A DNA stretch of 28,437 bases from the IMG/VR virus record IMGVR_UViG_3300026224_000011, positions 1 through 28,437 of that record; one strand, written 5' to 3'. Source of the stretch: a virus (Duplodnaviria; Heunggongvirae; Uroviricota; Caudoviricetes). A program made the position numbers and the translations under genes. The notes below the pieces were generated by a model. It saw nothing but the letters and a program-made list of their open reading frames with translations. It was not told the origin of the DNA and did no database searches. Below, in pieces: positions 3,675-23,390 of this stretch; positions within the stretch are counted from its first letter, which is position 1; the number at the start of each line of letters is the position of its first letter.

Positions 3675-4862
3675 TTACTCATCTCCTGCGTAATAGTCGT
3701 TTCCTGCATAACGGGCGATATCTTCTGGATCAGTGCCCATCATGGAACAAATGGCGATATCGACATCGACGTCATCGCCGGTTTTAATCTGCGCCGGGGC
3801 CGGTGACGGCGTTTTGGGTGGTTTGCCGCCGGTCTGTGTCTGACTGAGCGCAACAAGTTTCGGTGCGTTCTCCAGCCAGGACTTAAAGCCGTTGATATCG
3901 CGACCGGCGTAATCTTTCGCCCAGTCTTCCTGGGCCGGAAGCAGTCGCCCGTCAGACAGTGCCGCCTGAATCAGTGCCCCGGCTTCGGCCTCACCGGACT
4001 GTTGCGCCAGTGCGGCATAACGCCCCTGAAGTTCTTCAAAGGCAGCGAGGGAAATGTGTTTTGACGGGTCATAGGCATTGGCTGACAGGCTGGCGATTTG
4101 CTCGTCTTTCTGATTCAGCAGGGCCAGCAGACCAACAGAAGCCGCTGCCGTTCCTTTGCCACCAGAGACAGCATCAATAATTTTTTGCAGCTCTGCGCAT
4201 ACTTCCTCTGCGGTTGAGGTTTCCGGCAGCGTCAGCAGCCAGCGTAACTGCGCGAGTAAATTTGCTAATTGTTCCGGGTTCACGGTTTTGGTCTCCGTTT
4301 CAGTTGACAGACTCGCCAGACGGCTGGCCGCAGCCAGCATGACCGCGTCCATACCGTCGAGCGCAGGGGTATTGGTCAGCGCAGCGTGTAACAGCTCCAG
4401 CACTTCGCCGCGCTTGTTGTAGGCAAAAACAGGGGAAATAAACTTGTACTCACCGGCGGCAATCATGGCCGCCGCGTTCTCCGTCCACTCCACACCGGTG
4501 GCATACAGGCCCGCGCCTTCTCGCCATTCCACCTGGCTGAACCAGCCCGCCGCCGGGGCGGGCTTGCCGTTGTTTACGGCGCGCAGCGTCTGATGTTCGT
4601 AATCAATGACAAAAGGCGTGGTACGGGCTGCCACCTGCGCGACAAGCTGCGCGGCCAGTTCAGCGGTCAGCACCCATTTACCGCTTTCGACTTCATCGGT
4701 ATGTGGGCGACCATCCACCGCGCTGAACTCGCCCGCCGGAAACAGCTGGATTTCGCTGTGGGTTGCTTTAGTAATTTCGAGGCTTAATGCCGCAATGTTC
4801 AGTTTCATACGCGGCATGATGACGGAAGGGGAACACGGGGTACTGTGGAGGGTGTTCAGCAC
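3675..4862 (-). CDS. Mu I-like head protease/scaffold protein
   Basis: 395-aa ORF at the Mu I position between G and T; start uncertain (GTG 4862, ATG 4817 or ATG 4808; none has a clear RBS). Confidence 0.6.
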   Translation of the reverse strand: MLNTLHSTPCSPSVIMPRMKLNIAALSLEITKATHSEIQLFPAGEFSAVDGRPHTDEVESGKWVLTAELAAQLVAQVAARTTPFVIDYEHQTLRAVNNGKPAPAAGWFSQVEWREGAGLYATGVEWTENAAAMIAAGEYKFISPVFAYNKRGEVLELLHAALTNTPALDGMDAVMLAAASRLASLSTETETKTVNPEQLANLLAQLRWLLTLPETSTAEEVCAELQKIIDAVSGGKGTAAASVGLLALLNQKDEQIASLSANAYDPSKHISLAAFEELQGRYAALAQQSGEAEAGALIQAALSDGRLLPAQEDWAKDYAGRDINGFKSWLENAPKLVALSQTQTGGKPPKTPSPAPAQIKTGDDVDVDIAICSMMGTDPEDIARYAGNDYYAGDE

Positions 4863-4868
4863 CCTGCC
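4837..4868 (-). promoter_or_regulatory. late-operon dyad motif, copy A (GGGTGCTGAACACCC core)
   Basis: About 27 of 28 bp shared with 12861-12896; both lie at the 5' end of a late operon. Confidence 0.4.
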
Positions 4869-4900
4869 ATAACGCGAAAGGATAAAAGGGGAAATAAAAC

Positions 4901-4925
4901 CGTTTTTAAAACCCTTTTAAAAACG
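4901..4925. promoter_or_regulatory. AT-rich inverted repeat in the G-I intergenic region
   Basis: cgtttttaaaa ccc ttttaaaaacg: 11-bp perfect arms with a 3-bp spacer. Confidence 0.35.
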
Positions 4926-5016
4926 ATTCTGGCGGTATTTATGGGGTGCGGTGCTGTAATGCTCATCCGTGAGGCGTTTATGTCGTCAGAGTCGATTACA
5001 GCGCGTTTGTGGTCAT

Positions 5017-5568
5017 TCAGTCAATCACACGCGCAAAATAGCGGTTTGCGGTGTTCTCCAGCTCGTCGATGTCGTCCTGCACAAGCTGAAGGAAGGGGCG
5101 CGCGGGCATGTTGACCGTATACGCTCCGACCGTTGCGCTCTGTACAAAATTACTGTTGCGCTTTTTCACAAAGCGGGTGCTGACGCTGCCGTTTTTGTAC
5201 TGTTTAAAATACAGGTTCTGCGTCCGTGCCTGATGGCGGATTTCGCCGCCTTCGTTGTGGATACGGGCGTAACGGACGTTTGTCCCGACCGTGGCCTCGT
5301 TATTGTTAACCGCAGAGCGGATACTGGCAGCCAGTCGCCCGGACTTCTGAAGGATTTGCCCGGGGCCGCGTCGCTTCGCATAAGCCGGACTCCAGCCCAT
5401 CCATTTCGGGCGACCCTGTTGTTCAAAGTTAGTCTCAACCGCATCCAGCATGGAACCCGCAAGCGCCGTCATCAGGTCGCGCCGGTCCTTCACGGAACGA
5501 ATCAGTTTCCCCAGCGTGGTGTTATACGCGCTTAAATCAATCTTAATATCCAGTTTACCGCTGCTCAT
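5017..5568 (-). CDS. Mu G-like virion morphogenesis protein
   Basis: 183-aa ORF; ATG at 5568 overlaps the F stop (ATGA); GGAGG RBS; IHNEGG-containing morphogenesis-type sequence. Confidence 0.65.
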   Translation of the reverse strand: MSSGKLDIKIDLSAYNTTLGKLIRSVKDRRDLMTALAGSMLDAVETNFEQQGRPKWMGWSPAYAKRRGPGQILQKSGRLAASIRSAVNNNEATVGTNVRYARIHNEGGEIRHQARTQNLYFKQYKNGSVSTRFVKKRNSNFVQSATVGAYTVNMPARPFLQLVQDDIDELENTANRYFARVID

Positions 5569-6731
5569 GATGCCTCCGGTGTGTCCTGCATAACCCAGTC
5601 TGTCAGCACGTCATCCTCAACCGTCACCACCGACCAGCGGTCGCCCGACTGTAACGCATACCGCCACGCGTTGCCGTCCTGCGTGACATGCTCCGCCCGT
5701 TCGATAGTCTGCTGCATCAGCACATAGTCGGCGGCGGTCGGGGGCGCGTCTGCTGCACTGAGGCGCTTCATAACGTCAGCCGTAAGGTTTACCGTCTGCC
5801 GTGCAGCGCCCGTGGCGGCGACCTGTTCTGGTGAACGGATGGCCAGCGGATATCGCTGGCGCGCATCCAGTTCGCTGACGTTCGCCAGTCCCCGGGCAAA
5901 ATCCGGCCCGGTCAGGGTGCCGGTAACATACTGGCGGGCGCTGCGGTAATCGTATTTTTCCAGTTCCGGCTGCCATGCCACTTTGCCGGGGTTAAAACCG
6001 AAGCCCGGGTCGGCGGTATACACGGAGCCGTCCGGCATCTTCAGCCCCATTGTTCTGATGGTCTGGCCCGGCTGACCATATTCCTGTTCAACCTCAACCA
6101 GTCGCCCATCGCTGCTCTGCACCGTCAGGCCATATTTCTCCACATCAGACGCCGAACGCGCCCGGATACGGCAGCGGCATCCGTACCCGTCCGGCGCGTA
6201 GAAATACTCCCAGACCGGGTCATCCGCCCGGGCGGTAAAACCGTTCATGGCGGCGTGTTTCGGGCGGGTGTGAAGGTCCATCACCGCCACGCGCTCAAAA
6301 TAAGGCCGGTCGGCCACGTTCGCCATCTGCTGCTGATAGCGTCCGGCGTTGTAGGACGACTGAATGTTGGTATCAAATATCGTGCGCAACCGGCGCGGCG
6401 TCAGCTGCCTGCCGTGCAGTTCGCCGGTGTCCTCGTCCACAATCAGCCGTTTACCCAGCCAGCCTTTTTTCTCCAGTAACGGCTCCAGTTGTGCAGCAAA
6501 CTCCCGGAACGTCCCGCCGTCAGCCAGTGCCGCCGTCAGGCCGTCACGGATATCCTTCAGCACATCCAGTTTCAGCACACCCGCCACCGTGAACGCCCGG
6601 GCGTGTGCGATGTCCTTCACATCGTGCCAGCGGAAGCCGATAACGTATCCCTTGCTTTCGAAATACGTAATCGCTTCTTCCGGTTTCAGGGTGTACGCAT
6701 ACCCCAGGTCAACATCGTCAGCTGTCGGCAT
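5565..6731 (-). CDS. Mu F-like head morphogenesis protein
   Basis: 388-aa ORF directly after the portal gene; Mu F-like sequence and position. Confidence 0.7.
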   Translation of the reverse strand: MPTADDVDLGYAYTLKPEEAITYFESKGYVIGFRWHDVKDIAHARAFTVAGVLKLDVLKDIRDGLTAALADGGTFREFAAQLEPLLEKKGWLGKRLIVDEDTGELHGRQLTPRRLRTIFDTNIQSSYNAGRYQQQMANVADRPYFERVAVMDLHTRPKHAAMNGFTARADDPVWEYFYAPDGYGCRCRIRARSASDVEKYGLTVQSSDGRLVEVEQEYGQPGQTIRTMGLKMPDGSVYTADPGFGFNPGKVAWQPELEKYDYRSARQYVTGTLTGPDFARGLANVSELDARQRYPLAIRSPEQVAATGAARQTVNLTADVMKRLSAADAPPTAADYVLMQQTIERAEHVTQDGNAWRYALQSGDRWSVVTVEDDVLTDWVMQDTPEAS

Positions 6732-19141: not shown

Positions 19142-19381
19142 TTACTGCCATACGACGGTGCAGCCGTCGATACAGGACGTTTTCACCACGCGGCGCAGGC
19201 CGCTGAATGTCTGGATGATTTCCGTTACCGGCCATACAGGACCACCCACGGGCGGGCAGGCATAAACCACAGGTAAACGGTGATGCTGCCCCGTTACACG
19301 ACCGCCAGTGGTGTGGATGGCCACACGGGCACGGGAACGGACGGCGTTAATGGTCTGCTTGTCCATCGTCTTGTTCTCCAT
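19142..19381 (-). CDS. hypothetical protein following the B gene
   Basis: 79-aa ORF whose ATG overlaps the B stop (ATGA); Cys pairs CPP...CIDGC; no family recognised. Confidence 0.3.
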   Translation of the reverse strand: MENKTMDKQTINAVRSRARVAIHTTGGRVTGQHHRLPVVYACPPVGGPVWPVTEIIQTFSGLRRVVKTSCIDGCTVVWQ

Positions 19382-20274
19382 CAGTGAATTAACATTTCTG
19401 CGAATTTATCAATGGCCTGCACACTGACCGGTGCATCGCTGATATCACAAATCCGGTACACACCGCGCGCCAGTTTGAAGAGGCGGCGGGCATTACCCAG
19501 CGAGCGTACGTAAAGCGCCTCGCTGATTTCCGGTTCTGCTGCTTCCGGCATCAGCCCGGTGGCTATCTGGTTAAAATCTTCCTGCGCCAGCGTATCGCCC
19601 AGGTTAAGCGCCAGCGCCACACGGCTGTATAACTGGGCGAACTCACCGCGACGTCCCTTGAGGTTAATCAGAAGGCGTGGCATACCCGCCAGGACAATCC
19701 CGATACCCGCTTTGTCATGCAGACGGCGCAGAACCTCCAGTGCGCGATAGGGGAGCAGTTCAGCCTCGTCCACCATCAGCAGGCGACCGGAATCACGCAG
19801 TTCTCGCACACATGCATCAATCAGTTCGTGGATATTGCCGCGAACTTTTACCCCCAGCTGGCGGCACAGCTCCTCAAGCAGTGTTCTGGCTGTATAGCCC
19901 GGGTCGGCTTCAATCAGGACCGCATCCCGGTTTCTGGCGGCGTATTCACGCAGAATCATTGTTTTGCCAAGACCTGCCGCGCCATACAGTACGCAGATTT
20001 CACATTCCAGGTGAGCATAGGCCAACACCTCCAGTCCTTTGGCAGCCATACCGGTGGCAACAAATTTCGCTTTAATACGGCGGCTGTTTTCCTTTTCCCG
20101 CTCACGGGTCACAAAGGCGAAAATGCGTTCTTCAATATCAGCCATATCGCCCTGATATTTACCCTGTAAATACTGGTTGATAACGGCGCTGCTACGACCA
20201 ATAGCACGGGCGACGTGGGTTTGCGTATAGCCGCGACGGGCCATTACGTCATTTAATTGCGTAATTAAACTCAT
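19381..20274 (-). CDS. MuB-like transposition ATPase (AAA+)
   Basis: 297 aa; N-terminal HTH-like region; Walker A GAAGLGKT; Walker B LLMVDEAE; directly downstream of the transposase. Confidence 0.8.
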   Translation of the reverse strand: MSLITQLNDVMARRGYTQTHVARAIGRSSAVINQYLQGKYQGDMADIEERIFAFVTREREKENSRRIKAKFVATGMAAKGLEVLAYAHLECEICVLYGAAGLGKTMILREYAARNRDAVLIEADPGYTARTLLEELCRQLGVKVRGNIHELIDACVRELRDSGRLLMVDEAELLPYRALEVLRRLHDKAGIGIVLAGMPRLLINLKGRRGEFAQLYSRVALALNLGDTLAQEDFNQIATGLMPEAAEPEISEALYVRSLGNARRLFKLARGVYRICDISDAPVSVQAIDKFAEMLIH

Positions 20275-20292: not shown

Positions 20293-22335
20293 TTAACGGT
20301 TGTTTGTGCCGTTTTTCTTTAAATTGCGTTCGCGTTCAGATGCGAATAAATAAAGTTCTTCTTTTTCCTTTTTCTCCGGGCGCTCCAGTCCATATCCCAG
20401 ATTAAAGTCAGGCTTCTGCGTAATGGCCGGGGTAAGCTCGCGTTTAGCTTCTTCGATTTTCTGCGTGGCCCGTGCAATGCGGCCCCTGACGCGTTTCTCC
20501 AGTTTTTGCTCGATAACTGGTTTAGCGAAGGCATCAACCTTGTTACCGTTCCAGATGGCATCGCAGATATAAGAGCCATCAGCCCGCCGGACAATGACGC
20601 TGTTTGCATCATGAATATCGTAACTGACCCTGACTTCATTCCCGTGCTCTGCGGCCAGCTCATATGAGTAATAAATATTGTTGAATAACTGAATTTCCCC
20701 GCGAAATGTTTTGCGCGTCACTTCCGGTCTGAACATTTCATGCAGTTCTTCCGGCGACAGCATGTCGATTTCAGCCTTTTGCTCTTTTATCAGTTTCCGG
20801 CGATACGCTGCCGGGCTGTAATATTCGCCATCCTCTTTGCGAGGAAGGCTGCTGTGTGGCCGGTTGTTATAGCGTCTGACCTCCAGCTCTATGGCTGCCA
20901 TCAGTTGCTCAAAGGTAGGGATTTCATCCCTCGCCTTAACCTGCCGTTTTGTCAGCTCTTTCCCTTTGTGGGTGGCCTTAATGGCTGACTGCATAATCCG
21001 TTGCTGCATCATTACGGTTTCCTTGTCTGCATCCCTTGCGCAGTACGTCTGGAAACTCAGAGCCACGTCTTTGGGTATTCCTTTGTTTGCCCGTTCAATC
21101 ACCCCGCGCCCCTGCGGGTTACCTGGTATCCCCGTGTGATGTTCCACACCCAGACGGGGCAGAATCCCGGTAATATCGGCATCAAGCACCCGGTTTTTTT
21201 CGCCGCCCCCGTTATCGGAGTAATAAATCAGCGGTATCCCGTGCTGTGCCATGCCGTAACGCAACGCATCAGCAACAGCTATCACGTTCTCCGACAGGGA
21301 CAGTGACCAGCCCACAACAAAGCGTTGCCCCGCATCCATAACCAGCGTCACTTCTGGCCGGAAAATATTGCCGGTCAGGGGGTTAAACGCGGTCATTTTC
21401 ATACAGTGACCATCCCCGACCCATACCGCATTAACCGGTAATGATGTCCAGTCGCGCCGCACAAAGGGATTGAGCGAACGCCAGGCTGAACCGGTGGAGC
21501 GGAAACGCTCTTTAACAATCACCGGGACGCTGCTTAACACCCGTCTTACTGCGTGAACTGAAGGCAGTGCCGCCAGCATTCCCGCATCATTCGCGTGTTT
21601 TTCATGCCACCAGGCTGAAAACTCACGATACGCATATTCAACAGTCGGGCGCTTCCATGAGCGATAGAACATAAAGAAATCGCTCAACCACCAGACCTGC
21701 TCCCACGGTGTTCCCTTATGATGACCGGGAGCCAGTAACGCCAGTAACTGATTGGCATCACCGCGCGCCATCACCCAGCTGGAGTACCAGCTATCCAGGC
21801 TGCCGGTGCTGACACCGGTTCGCTTTCCCTGACGTGCATTTGCAGTATTCGCTGCTTCGATAATGCGGTCAGGTAACGCCCCCATGCGCACACCATCAAC
21901 GATGTGCTTTAAAGCGGCCTTCCTGGTCATTCCGGCATACTCGCGCAGCTTATGCACTTCAGTAGCCAGCAATATCCGCGCATCAGCGATGGCCTTTTGC
22001 TTGTCGGTCAGTGACTGGACTTCGCGTAATGCCAGCTCCGGGCATTTGACCATCACCTCCAGTTCATCGCGAACGGCGACGTTTTTAACTGCTTTCTGCT
22101 CAACTACGGCGGGCAGTTGTGCATCTTCCAGGACCTGATGAGTCAGGCGCTTACGTAAAACTTTCTGCGCTTCAGCGGGCAGGCAGTCGATGTGATACTC
22201 GAATGCTTTGGTGCCTTCGCGCTTGCGCTTCCATTCTGGGTGCGTCTCTGTGATCCGATTGAGCGTCCAGCGCACCCCCTGAACTGTACCGGGCAAACCA
22301 GGAAGACCGGCCAGCTCATTGGCTGAATAAAACAT
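20293..22335 (-). CDS. MuA-like DDE transposase
   Basis: 680 aa; Mu A-like size and architecture; ATG overlaps the ner stop (TAATG). Confidence 0.85.
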   Translation of the reverse strand: MFYSANELAGLPGLPGTVQGVRWTLNRITETHPEWKRKREGTKAFEYHIDCLPAEAQKVLRKRLTHQVLEDAQLPAVVEQKAVKNVAVRDELEVMVKCPELALREVQSLTDKQKAIADARILLATEVHKLREYAGMTRKAALKHIVDGVRMGALPDRIIEAANTANARQGKRTGVSTGSLDSWYSSWVMARGDANQLLALLAPGHHKGTPWEQVWWLSDFFMFYRSWKRPTVEYAYREFSAWWHEKHANDAGMLAALPSVHAVRRVLSSVPVIVKERFRSTGSAWRSLNPFVRRDWTSLPVNAVWVGDGHCMKMTAFNPLTGNIFRPEVTLVMDAGQRFVVGWSLSLSENVIAVADALRYGMAQHGIPLIYYSDNGGGEKNRVLDADITGILPRLGVEHHTGIPGNPQGRGVIERANKGIPKDVALSFQTYCARDADKETVMMQQRIMQSAIKATHKGKELTKRQVKARDEIPTFEQLMAAIELEVRRYNNRPHSSLPRKEDGEYYSPAAYRRKLIKEQKAEIDMLSPEELHEMFRPEVTRKTFRGEIQLFNNIYYSYELAAEHGNEVRVSYDIHDANSVIVRRADGSYICDAIWNGNKVDAFAKPVIEQKLEKRVRGRIARATQKIEEAKRELTPAITQKPDFNLGYGLERPEKKEKEELYLFASERERNLKKNGTNNR

Positions 22336-22739: not shown

Positions 22740-23390
22740 ATGAGTAAACAAATCGCTGATGATTTTTCCTTTTCTCAGGATAGAAAAGAAAGCATTCAAG
22801 ACAGAATCAAACAACTGATTGGCACCAGGAGCCTGCGTAAAGCCACCTCAGACTGGGGATTACCGTACTCGACCATAAATAACTACTTTGAAAAAGGCAC
22901 GACACCTGGCCTAAATGTGGTCGCTACAATAGCAAAATTAGAGAATGTATCACTGGAATGGCTGGTCTACGGTGAGAACAGAAGTGTTCCAATGGTAGAA
23001 AAATCAAGGGTGACTACAGAAGACGTTAACCGCCCCGATACAAGTATTGTTGACGAAATACTAAGACGAGCCGCTCCAGAAGATAGAGAGCGTCTTATTG
23101 ATATGCTTTGTTGTATTGGTATCAAAGGAGTCCTGGAACGCCTACAACAACCCACCAGGCAAGCGAAACAGGCCTACAACGACCTAGACGAACAGGAGAA
23201 TGCCATCAGAAGCCTGAACATCAGGGAATCGCTAAAAGACGCCATATGTATGGCATTAGATGGTAACGAAGAAATTGACAAAGAGATTTTGCGCCGCATC
23301 GAATCTCATATACGAGCTAGGTCGCCAGGTGGTCAGACCGTTGCCACGCCGGAGCAAGAAACGAAGCCTGTAAACAAGAAATCAGCATAA
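22740..23390 (+). CDS. prophage repressor (c-like)
   Basis: 216 aa; ATG after AAGGAAAG RBS; HTH-like N-terminal region; divergent from ner as in Mu; AT-rich. Confidence 0.65.
   Translation: MSKQIADDFSFSQDRKESIQDRIKQLIGTRSLRKATSDWGLPYSTINNYFEKGTTPGLNVVATIAKLENVSLEWLVYGENRSVPMVEKSRVTTEDVNRPDTSIVDEILRRAAPEDRERLIDMLCCIGIKGVLERLQQPTRQAKQAYNDLDEQENAIRSLNIRESLKDAICMALDGNEEIDKEILRRIESHIRARSPGGQTVATPEQETKPVNKKSA

Follow-up and report, generated by a model that had tools for sequence, protein, structure and literature searches.

How are the late genes of a Mu-like prophage switched on when its genome encodes a single recognisable late activator? The question is raised by a 28,437-nucleotide stretch of viral DNA (Caudoviricetes; IMG/VR record IMGVR_UViG_3300026224_000011), referred to here in its full length as the window, which holds most of a Mu-like prophage with its genes reading on the minus strand. 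An earlier inspection of these letters, the sequence-only reading, had drawn attention to a block at 4837-4868 that recurs almost unchanged at 12861-12896, and had proposed that it binds the Mor/C-family protein encoded at 13229-13696. The repeated motif is real and non-random. We conclude, with a probability of about 80%, that the two copies contain binding sites for the prophage's own Mor/C-type activator at a Plys-like and a PI-like late promoter; binding, activator dependence and start sites we infer from comparison between relatives and from analogy with phage Mu. Coordinates of all features are collected in Table 1.

The repeated block contains a conserved 16-bp dyad

The plus-strand sequence quoted for the first copy is present in the window, as is its partner. 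On the minus strand, which is the sense strand of the phage genes, copy A reads GGCAGGGTGCTGAACACCCTCCACAGTACCCC and copy B CCTGCTGGGGGTGCTGAACACCCCCAGCAGTACCCA, and a repeat search of the window aligned 4838-4864 with 12862-12888 at 24 of 27 identical positions. A 15-nt core, GGGTGCTGAACACCC on the gene-sense strand, is matched perfectly at just two places in the window, one 5′ of the I-like protease gene and the other 5′ of the holin gene, so that both copies do sit at the PI-like and Plys-like positions of a Mu-like prophage. Allowing up to three mismatches the window gave six strand-matches of the core against 0.86 expected, a count reached by none of 100 shuffles. A complete, near-identical copy of the prophage is available from strain TUM9812, where it is inserted in araJ and its whole gene map is visible (L001); here a longer pattern, CTGAACACCCNNNNCAGTACCC, was found twice against an expectation of 0.01. 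The core is also dyad-symmetric as described, with self-complementary GGGTG and CACCC arms around CTGAA. Copy A does overlap the longest open reading frame (ORF) of the I-like gene, whose first codon would be GTG 4862, and with the start codons assigned below (protease ATG 4808, holin ATG 12726) both copies fall in non-coding gaps.

Relatives were retrieved through homologues of the activator protein. This gave nine prophages with activators 46-83% identical, the loci coming from Salmonella (65%), an 83% relative, Xenorhabdus, Serratia, Aeromonas and several metagenomic or Logan contigs (53-57%). The unit conserved across these nine is a 16-bp imperfect dyad, GCTGA-N6-TCAGC, found in the window at 4860-4845 and 12884-12869, and its centre lies 4.5 bp downstream of the one proposed from the window alone. 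Each relative carries a related box before its lysis/packaging genes and before its I gene, always on the sense strand, and the part that these boxes share is GCTGAA(C/G)-(C/A)CC-N-(T/C)CA(G/A)C. The GGGTG-CTGAA-CACCC arrangement, which had been put forward as the key dyad, has to be given up, as its arms are not kept in the Xenorhabdus sites (CGACTGCTGAACCCCCTCAA and CATCTGCTGAACCCCCTCAAC), in the Serratia I site (AAGCGCTGAACCCTCTCAGC) or in a third site of the same E. coli prophage (TTAAGTGCTGAACACCCTCACC, with AAGTG in place of GGGTG). The 16-bp dyad is perfect (GCTGA-ACCCTC-TCAGC) in loci L124 and L126, and most sites keep four of the five arm pairs, including the PI-like box of L001, where the arm reads TCAAC.

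We trained a weight matrix on the non-E. coli sites only, with 30 shuffles as control. On the 40.5-kb L001 locus it returned three sites, before the protease gene (22.9), gp46 (21.7) and the holin gene (18.4), followed by a match of 11.8 in host DNA; the best scores of the shuffles averaged 9.3 and reached at most 16.0 (n = 30). The three high-scoring sites lie at the heads of the late operons. In the window the matrix recovered just the two sites, the next, unrelated match scoring 10.7. No mom-type fourth site appeared in the scans of L001 and the window. The third site lies beyond the end of the window, between the baseplate V-like gene and the gp46 baseplate gene (L001 32144-32159). A search for additional copies upstream of tail operons had been suggested as a check on the motif, whose absence from other late operons would have counted against it, and complete copies of the same prophage do carry this one before the tail/baseplate operon. 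More than 20 IMG/VR contigs of this lineage retain it, and the same spacing is found in more distant contigs. The Plys-like and PI-like promoters share in addition a block, CAGTACCC, directly after the box.

The box lies at a fixed distance from a -10 hexamer

Counting offsets from the first G of GCTGAA (offset 0), we asked what else accompanies the box. A box-only pattern, with no requirement for a -10 element, gave 21 matches in 10 loci, all on the sense strand, 20 of them intergenic and one in a coding region. An xAxxxT hexamer occurs at offsets 39-44 in all 20 intergenic sites and is missing at the coding-region match, the background frequency being 5%. The hexamers themselves vary (TACCCT, CATCAT, TACACT, TACGCT, TATTCT, TATGCT, CACAAT, CAGTAT, CAATAT and CAGACT). 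As they differ in sequence and keep their offset, it is a function that is conserved here and not a string. The promoter layout is GCTGA-N6-TCAGC, then 23 bp, then the -10 hexamer, with the box centre 31.5 bp before the start of the -10. If +1 is the seventh base after the hexamer, the dyad would span -51 to -36 and be centred at -43.5. At the place of a -35 the sites show AGTACC or other sequence that does not match the hexamer, and a consensus scan found no full sigma-70 promoter in 4500-5300 or 12500-13400. For the Plys-like promoter the predicted start at about 12833 would give a leader of about 107 nt to the holin start codon, which is preceded by an AGGAG Shine-Dalgarno sequence.

Two other assignments were considered and rejected. 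Using TACCCC/TACCCA as the -10 would put the box at about -25, and these hexamers are not conserved in the relatives. A sigma-E-like -35/-10 reading would call for a conserved element 16-17 bp beyond GAAC, and none was seen on inspection of the aligned sites.

In the G-I intergenic region, upstream of the PI-like promoter, A/T-rich repeats recur in phase about every 12 bp (4882-4933; ATAAAACCGTTTTTAAAACCCTTTTAAA). Runs of GTTTAAA/TTTTTAAA are similar at the G-I region of all relatives, and in Mu they surround the annotated gyrase cut site between G and I. The repeats may be the counterpart of the strong gyrase site of Mu, or an UP-like or bending element.

A single Mor/C-family protein is the candidate reader

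The sequence-only reading had assigned the binding protein to 13229-13696 as the only member of its family, and this ORF is indeed the sole match to the family hidden Markov model in six frames of the window. It matches Pfam PF08765 at 29.1 bits (cut-off 24.9) and PHROG 836, annotated as 'late transcriptional activator', at 9e-42. The FLGG..FYIP motif and the helix-turn-helix (HTH) region are common to this protein and Mu C. Its C-terminus reads K-S-P-T-Q-V-G-L-F-D and all close homologues end Q-x-G-L-F, an ending that resembles QPDLF, the C-terminal sliding-clamp-binding motif of Mu C (PMC12867686). The last ten codons, which encode QVGLFD, are overlapped by a hairpin with the appearance of an intrinsic terminator, the probable end of the early operon. 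With only one Mor/C gene, the E. coli lineage would pass from early to late expression without a middle stage, so that one protein probably runs a two-stage programme, unlike the three-stage cascade of Mu.

The number of Mor/C genes differs between relatives. One Xenorhabdus prophage (L123) has two tandem paralogues, at 4315-4779 and 5328-5786 of that locus, as in Mu; the relatives from E. coli, Salmonella, Serratia and Aeromonas carry a single gene. In the window, a 95-aa ORF (12914-13201, minus strand; PHROG 7152, no Pfam match) follows the early terminator and precedes the first late promoter. It has a good Shine-Dalgarno sequence and neither a box nor a recognisable promoter of its own. 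L001 carries a diverged 92-aa version of this ORF, with a recombination boundary at the left edge of the box.

What ties the box to the protein? Among 38 representatives of the I lineages, whose upstream identity is below 80%, the half-sites change together, giving pairs such as GCGGAA/TTCCGC, CGTGAA/TTCACG, CTAAC/GTTAG and CGAAT/ATTCG, and a dyad with at least five of six outer pairs is centred 43.5-44.5 nt upstream of the ATG in 20 of the 38. Half-sites that covary about a constant centre are what would be expected of a symmetric dimeric reader. The same box type is present at all late promoters within a phage and changes between phage lineages. All 80 contigs selected by the helix pattern G(I/F)SDRx(G/A)W carry CTGAA-type boxes. 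We looked at covariation of helix and half-site in Haemophilus phage SuMu, a Klebsiella phage and Pseudomonas phage MP22. In SuMu the helix begins CDRTAW, and the lysis, I and gp46 promoters carry GTGGAAG-N-TTCCTC with the same 39-nt spacing to the -10.

Several points weigh against assigning the boxes to the Mor/C-type activator. The dyads of the window are imperfect, with 3/5 and 4/5 arm pairs, and the -10 hexamers are weak, CATCAT and TACCCT agreeing with the consensus mainly at A2 and T6. The sites in our information-content table were picked by GCTGAA, which makes those six columns invariant by construction. The link between box and protein rests on the Mu analogy and on co-occurrence, SuMu being the sole case of covariation in which both partners are at hand. 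The support is comparative throughout, and for this prophage start sites, footprint and expression are all predicted.

Alternative explanations for the conserved box

The box might instead have another reader, which could be a different phage protein, such as the product of the 95-aa ORF, or RNA polymerase itself acting through a non-canonical upstream element. Most relatives keep this ORF, placed after the activator gene and ahead of the first late promoter. Its product, however, has no recognisable DNA-binding domain, and the geometry of the box matches the biochemically defined Mor and C sites in detail. The Mor/C homologue is moreover the sole member of its family and is encoded immediately upstream, as in Mu. 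We therefore regard a reader other than the Mor/C protein as improbable.

A self-complementary sequence could also act as a nucleic-acid hairpin, whether as a terminator, attenuator, processing site, boxB-like antiterminator target or cruciform. Copy B would fit this description, since in the window it forms a perfect stem of 12 bp (-25.7 kcal/mol, z = -5.5), the consensus scan calls it terminator-like on the plus (antisense) strand (12867-12895, stem 12-13 bp), and several copies from the E. coli lineage keep 11 of the 12 stem pairs. The other sites do not behave in this way, as the fold of copy A (z = -1.07) does not stand out from those of shuffles, nor do those of the third site (z = -0.5) and a Xenorhabdus site (z = +1.6), and in copy B of L001 the left arm is swapped for unrelated sequence and the box retained. 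The sense strand lacks a U-tract and no Rfam family matches. The sites of L123 and L124 have lost the GGGTG/CACCC arms, and what they keep instead is an asymmetric position relative to the -10 hexamer. A role as a hairpin is thus very unlikely.

It is also conceivable that a host factor recognising 5-6-5 dyads, for example one of the CRP/FNR family, binds here, so that the late genes would follow host physiology. CRP recognises the consensus TGTGA-N6-TCACA and FNR TTGAT-N4-ATCAA, and CRP acts from -41.5 at class II and from -61.5 at class I promoters. GCTGA-N6-TCAGC shares the 5-6-5 layout and the TGA/TCA of a CRP site, and one distant lineage has CGTGAAGCCCTTCACG, which contains GTGA-N6-TCAC. 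The match to the CRP consensus is nevertheless just 3/5 per half-site, and the deduced centre at -43.5 fits Mor/C and neither of the CRP positions. Phages of the same host differ, E. coli phage Mu having TTAT-N5-6-ATAA and this prophage GCTGA-N6-TCAGC, so box type follows phage lineage and not host. The box is furthermore confined to the three late-operon positions of the prophage, and a host factor has in our view only a slim chance of being the reader.

That the repeat is a chance match or a functionless remnant of recombination, as the two copies in the window and the recombination boundary at the flank of copy B in L001 might allow, is effectively refuted by the comparative data, there being no such repeat in shuffles and the element being kept across genera at orthologous positions with fixed spacing to the -10.

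The protease start codon and a predicted leaderless mRNA

The overlap of copy A with the annotated 5′ end of the I-like gene had been taken to argue for a later start codon, at 4817 or 4808. The second of these positions stands. Relatives that lack an in-frame upstream ATG start at the equivalent codon, the Prokaryotic Genome Annotation Pipeline (PGAP) agrees, and the N-terminus MK..IAAL is conserved from ATG 4808; the sequence upstream of this codon is divergent, and in L120 and L123 it is not in frame. As judged from these alignments the protease gene starts at ATG 4808. ATG 4817 we reject, as it lies inside the -10 hexamer (CATC-ATG) and its equivalent is missing in L120 and out of frame in L123.

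ATG 4808 begins 7 nt after the -10 hexamer, at offset 52 (51 in other lineages and at gp46), and none of GGAG, GAGG, AGGA or AAGG is present in the region -20 to -4 of this codon. It is therefore predicted to be +1 or +2 of a leaderless mRNA. In the 38 I lineages the xAxxxT hexamer ends 7 or 8 nt before the ATG in 33, and a Shine-Dalgarno-like tetramer is present in four. At gp46 the picture is similar, the hexamer ending at -7 to -9 in 33 of 35 lineages and such a tetramer occurring in 6/35. It is somewhat more probable than its converse that the I protease/scaffold and gp46 genes are translated from leaderless mRNAs in which the A of the ATG is the start of transcription, a design that would be conserved widely in Mu-like phages and lost in Mu. 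The groups concerned are those of E. coli, Salmonella, Serratia, Xenorhabdus and Aeromonas, together with gp46 of Haemophilus phage SuMu and orf19a of the Pseudomonas D3112-like phages. Mu itself tells against this reading: an AGGA Shine-Dalgarno sequence precedes its I ATG, and the PI start lies upstream of that codon by about 27 nt (from hexamer geometry) to about 37 nt (from the published oligonucleotide design). Literature searches returned nothing relevant on leaderless late genes in Mu-like phages, on this motif, or on late-promoter motifs in other transposable phages.

Several observations on these start regions may be added. The gp46 baseplate-wedge gene opens with ATGGAC 6-8 nt after a -10-like hexamer in 33/35 Mu-like lineages (L001 32144-32197; IMG/VR loci L130-L209), and a lineage-specific box lies about 51 nt upstream of its start. 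Klebsiella phage ST405-OXA48phi1.1 has GTG at the gp46 start position. In Pseudomonas phage MP22 (L374 1076-1130) a TTGAAG-type box is followed by the hexamer CACGAT, 6 nt and the ATG of orf19a, the first gene after the D3112-like activator. From the MP22 layout, the predicted leaderless design would extend to siphoviral transposable phages.

A model for late gene activation

Taken together, these features suggest a simple scheme. The Mor/C-family protein would be made from the early operon, which appears to end in the terminator over its last codons. As a dimer or higher oligomer it would bind the dyad, with its centre about 43.5 bp upstream of the start, replace the missing -35 contact and recruit or activate the sigma-70 RNA polymerase. 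From the Plys-like promoter this would drive the lysis/packaging operon, and from the PI-like promoter the head operon, of which the I-like protease gene is the first. Outside the window, a third promoter built in the same way would act before the gp46 baseplate gene. At the PI-like promoter, start codon 4808 lies where transcription should begin, hence the prediction of a leaderless protease mRNA.

The element belongs to a well-known promoter class, the Mor/C-dependent promoters of Mu-like phages, whose activation complexes have been visualised only recently. What is gained is a testable late-promoter consensus for an uncharacterised family of Mu-like prophages in E. coli and several other enterobacterial genera, and, in the covarying half-sites, a natural specificity series for the Mor/C family. 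Leaderless late genes, if confirmed, would be a new feature for this phage group. They would couple activator-dependent initiation of transcription directly to leaderless initiation of translation, and might hold the full-length protease low relative to the internally initiated scaffold.

Prophage context and distribution

Downstream of the early region the holin-led lysis cassette runs down from 12726 and is followed by terminase, portal, F and G homologues, the I-like protease and the major head protein. The next ORF after the major head protein gene (2015-2356) contains three tandem 42-bp repeats, about 80% identical, at 2053-2162 in minus-strand coding sequence.

The same element is present in 55 of 5,426 complete E. 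coli genomes (about 1%), including enteropathogenic E. coli (EPEC) E2348/69, at 90-98% identity in one search and 91-97.5% in another. Two of 57 copies of the prophage region are on plasmids of about 249 kb and not on chromosomes (NZ_OZ547097.1 and NZ_OZ547049.1). A megablast search of GenBank phages with 10 kb of the window gave no match, and the nearest phage activator is only 42% identical. A scan of genome contigs with the activator protein yielded no confirmed relative. An exact 15-mer scan of IMG/VR returned mostly chance matches; listing their context recovered 12 prophage copies on 11 contigs, with two copies on just one contig.

Table 1. Features of the prophage discussed in the text, in window coordinates.
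Feature	Position	Strand	Remarks
Copy A	4837..4868	-	Box plus 4-8 nt upstream (GGGT completing the lineage-specific GGGTG/CACCC dyad) plus shared CAGTACCC in the -35/spacer region
Copy B	12861..12896	-	Flanks in this window lengthen the dyad to a 12-bp perfect hairpin
PI-like activator box (predicted)	4845..4860	-	GCTGAACACCCTCCAC; GCTGA-ACACCC-TCCAC, 3/5 arm pairs; matrix score 19.1; same position in nine relatives
Plys-like activator box (predicted)	12869..12884	-	GCTGAACACCCCCAGC; GCTGA-ACACCC-CCAGC, 4/5 arm pairs; matrix score 18.4; equivalents before lysis/packaging genes in all relatives
-10-like hexamer, PI-like promoter	4816..4821	-	CATCAT, 39 nt downstream of first base of box; -35 region AGTACC, no -35 hexamer
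-10-like hexamer, Plys-like promoter	12840..12845	-	TACCCT; xAxxxT at fixed offset from box
I-like head protease/scaffold gene	3675..4808	-	377 aa; Pfam Mu-like_Pro, 3.8e-98; PGAP start equivalent in L001
Holin gene	12313..12726	-	First gene of lysis/packaging late operon; Pfam Phage_holin_8, 2.3e-21; L001 annotation agrees
Mor/C-family activator gene	13229..13696	-	155 aa; FLGGxxFYIP motif, HTH region (YGISDRYAWQLI), C-terminal QVGLFD
Intrinsic-terminator-like hairpin and T-run	13233..13260	-	AAAGCCCCACCCAGGTGGGGCTTTTTGA; read in the sequence; -21.2 kcal/mol, z = -2.7; not listed by the consensus scan
GemA	14131-14625	-	
Transposase B	19381-20274	-	
Transposase A	20293-22335	-	
Repressor	22740-23390	+	

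Comparison with known systems

The late promoters of phage P2 and its satellite P4 are served by Ogr and Delta, small zinc-finger activators that use a dyad around -55 upstream of a weak sigma-70 promoter. The prophage resembles them in having a small phage activator, few late promoters and an upstream dyad. It differs in the protein family, the zinc-finger activators being unrelated, and in both the dyad and its position.

For the predicted leaderless genes the closest parallel is lambda cI, which is transcribed from PRM as a leaderless mRNA. In both cases the ATG would lie at or within 1 nt of the first transcribed base, with no Shine-Dalgarno sequence. Here, unlike in lambda, the start is predicted only, and the genes concerned are structural late genes (protease and baseplate wedge) behind activator-dependent promoters in many lineages.

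The nearest relatives of the box are found in Mu. The Mor site of Pm spans 16 bp, in which a G/C-rich hexanucleotide separates two inverted repeats of 5 bp; it is centred at -43.5, where it takes the place of the -35 (PMC4390567). The box studied here has the same size, 5-bp inverted repeats and G/C-rich spacer, and in both systems a small Mor/C protein is encoded at the end of the early operon beside a terminator, a comparable hairpin following directly after mor in Mu. The half-site sequence differs. The prophage also lacks a middle promoter of its own and a second activator, and its one protein would therefore seem to act directly on the late operons.

The C sites of Mu are likewise 16-bp imperfect dyads centred at -43.5, in promoters with a -10 and without a -35 (PMC2582627), their consensus is TTAT-N5-6-ATAA (PMC12867686), and a 10-bp match is common to the lys and I promoters (PMC4461284). 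For Mu we read the genome sequence itself and the oligonucleotides given in PMC4461284; our own count of the Plys dyad centre was not reconciled with the published -43.5, and that figure is taken from the papers. By our count, each of the four late promoters of Mu has an ATAAC half-site beginning 28 bp before its -10, and the promoter-proximal half-site here, TCA(A/G)C, also begins 28 bp before the -10, which argues for the same architecture with another half-site sequence. The map positions for lysis and gene I, the -10 without a -35, and the imperfect dyad over the -35 region are further likenesses (PMC2582627, PMC4461284), as is the extra block that the Plys and PI promoters share after the box, CAGTACCC here and the 10-bp match in Mu.

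The differences from Mu concern detail of placement and sequence. The third promoter lies here between gp45 and gp46, whereas these genes overlap in Mu and its PP is inside gene N, about 390 bp before P. The I mRNA of Mu has a leader with a Shine-Dalgarno sequence, and here the ATG is at the predicted +1. Finally, the consensus here is GCTGA-N6-TCAGC, and TTAT-N5-6-ATAA is not met with; these non-Mu half-sites point to another specificity within the Mor/C family and not to another mechanism.

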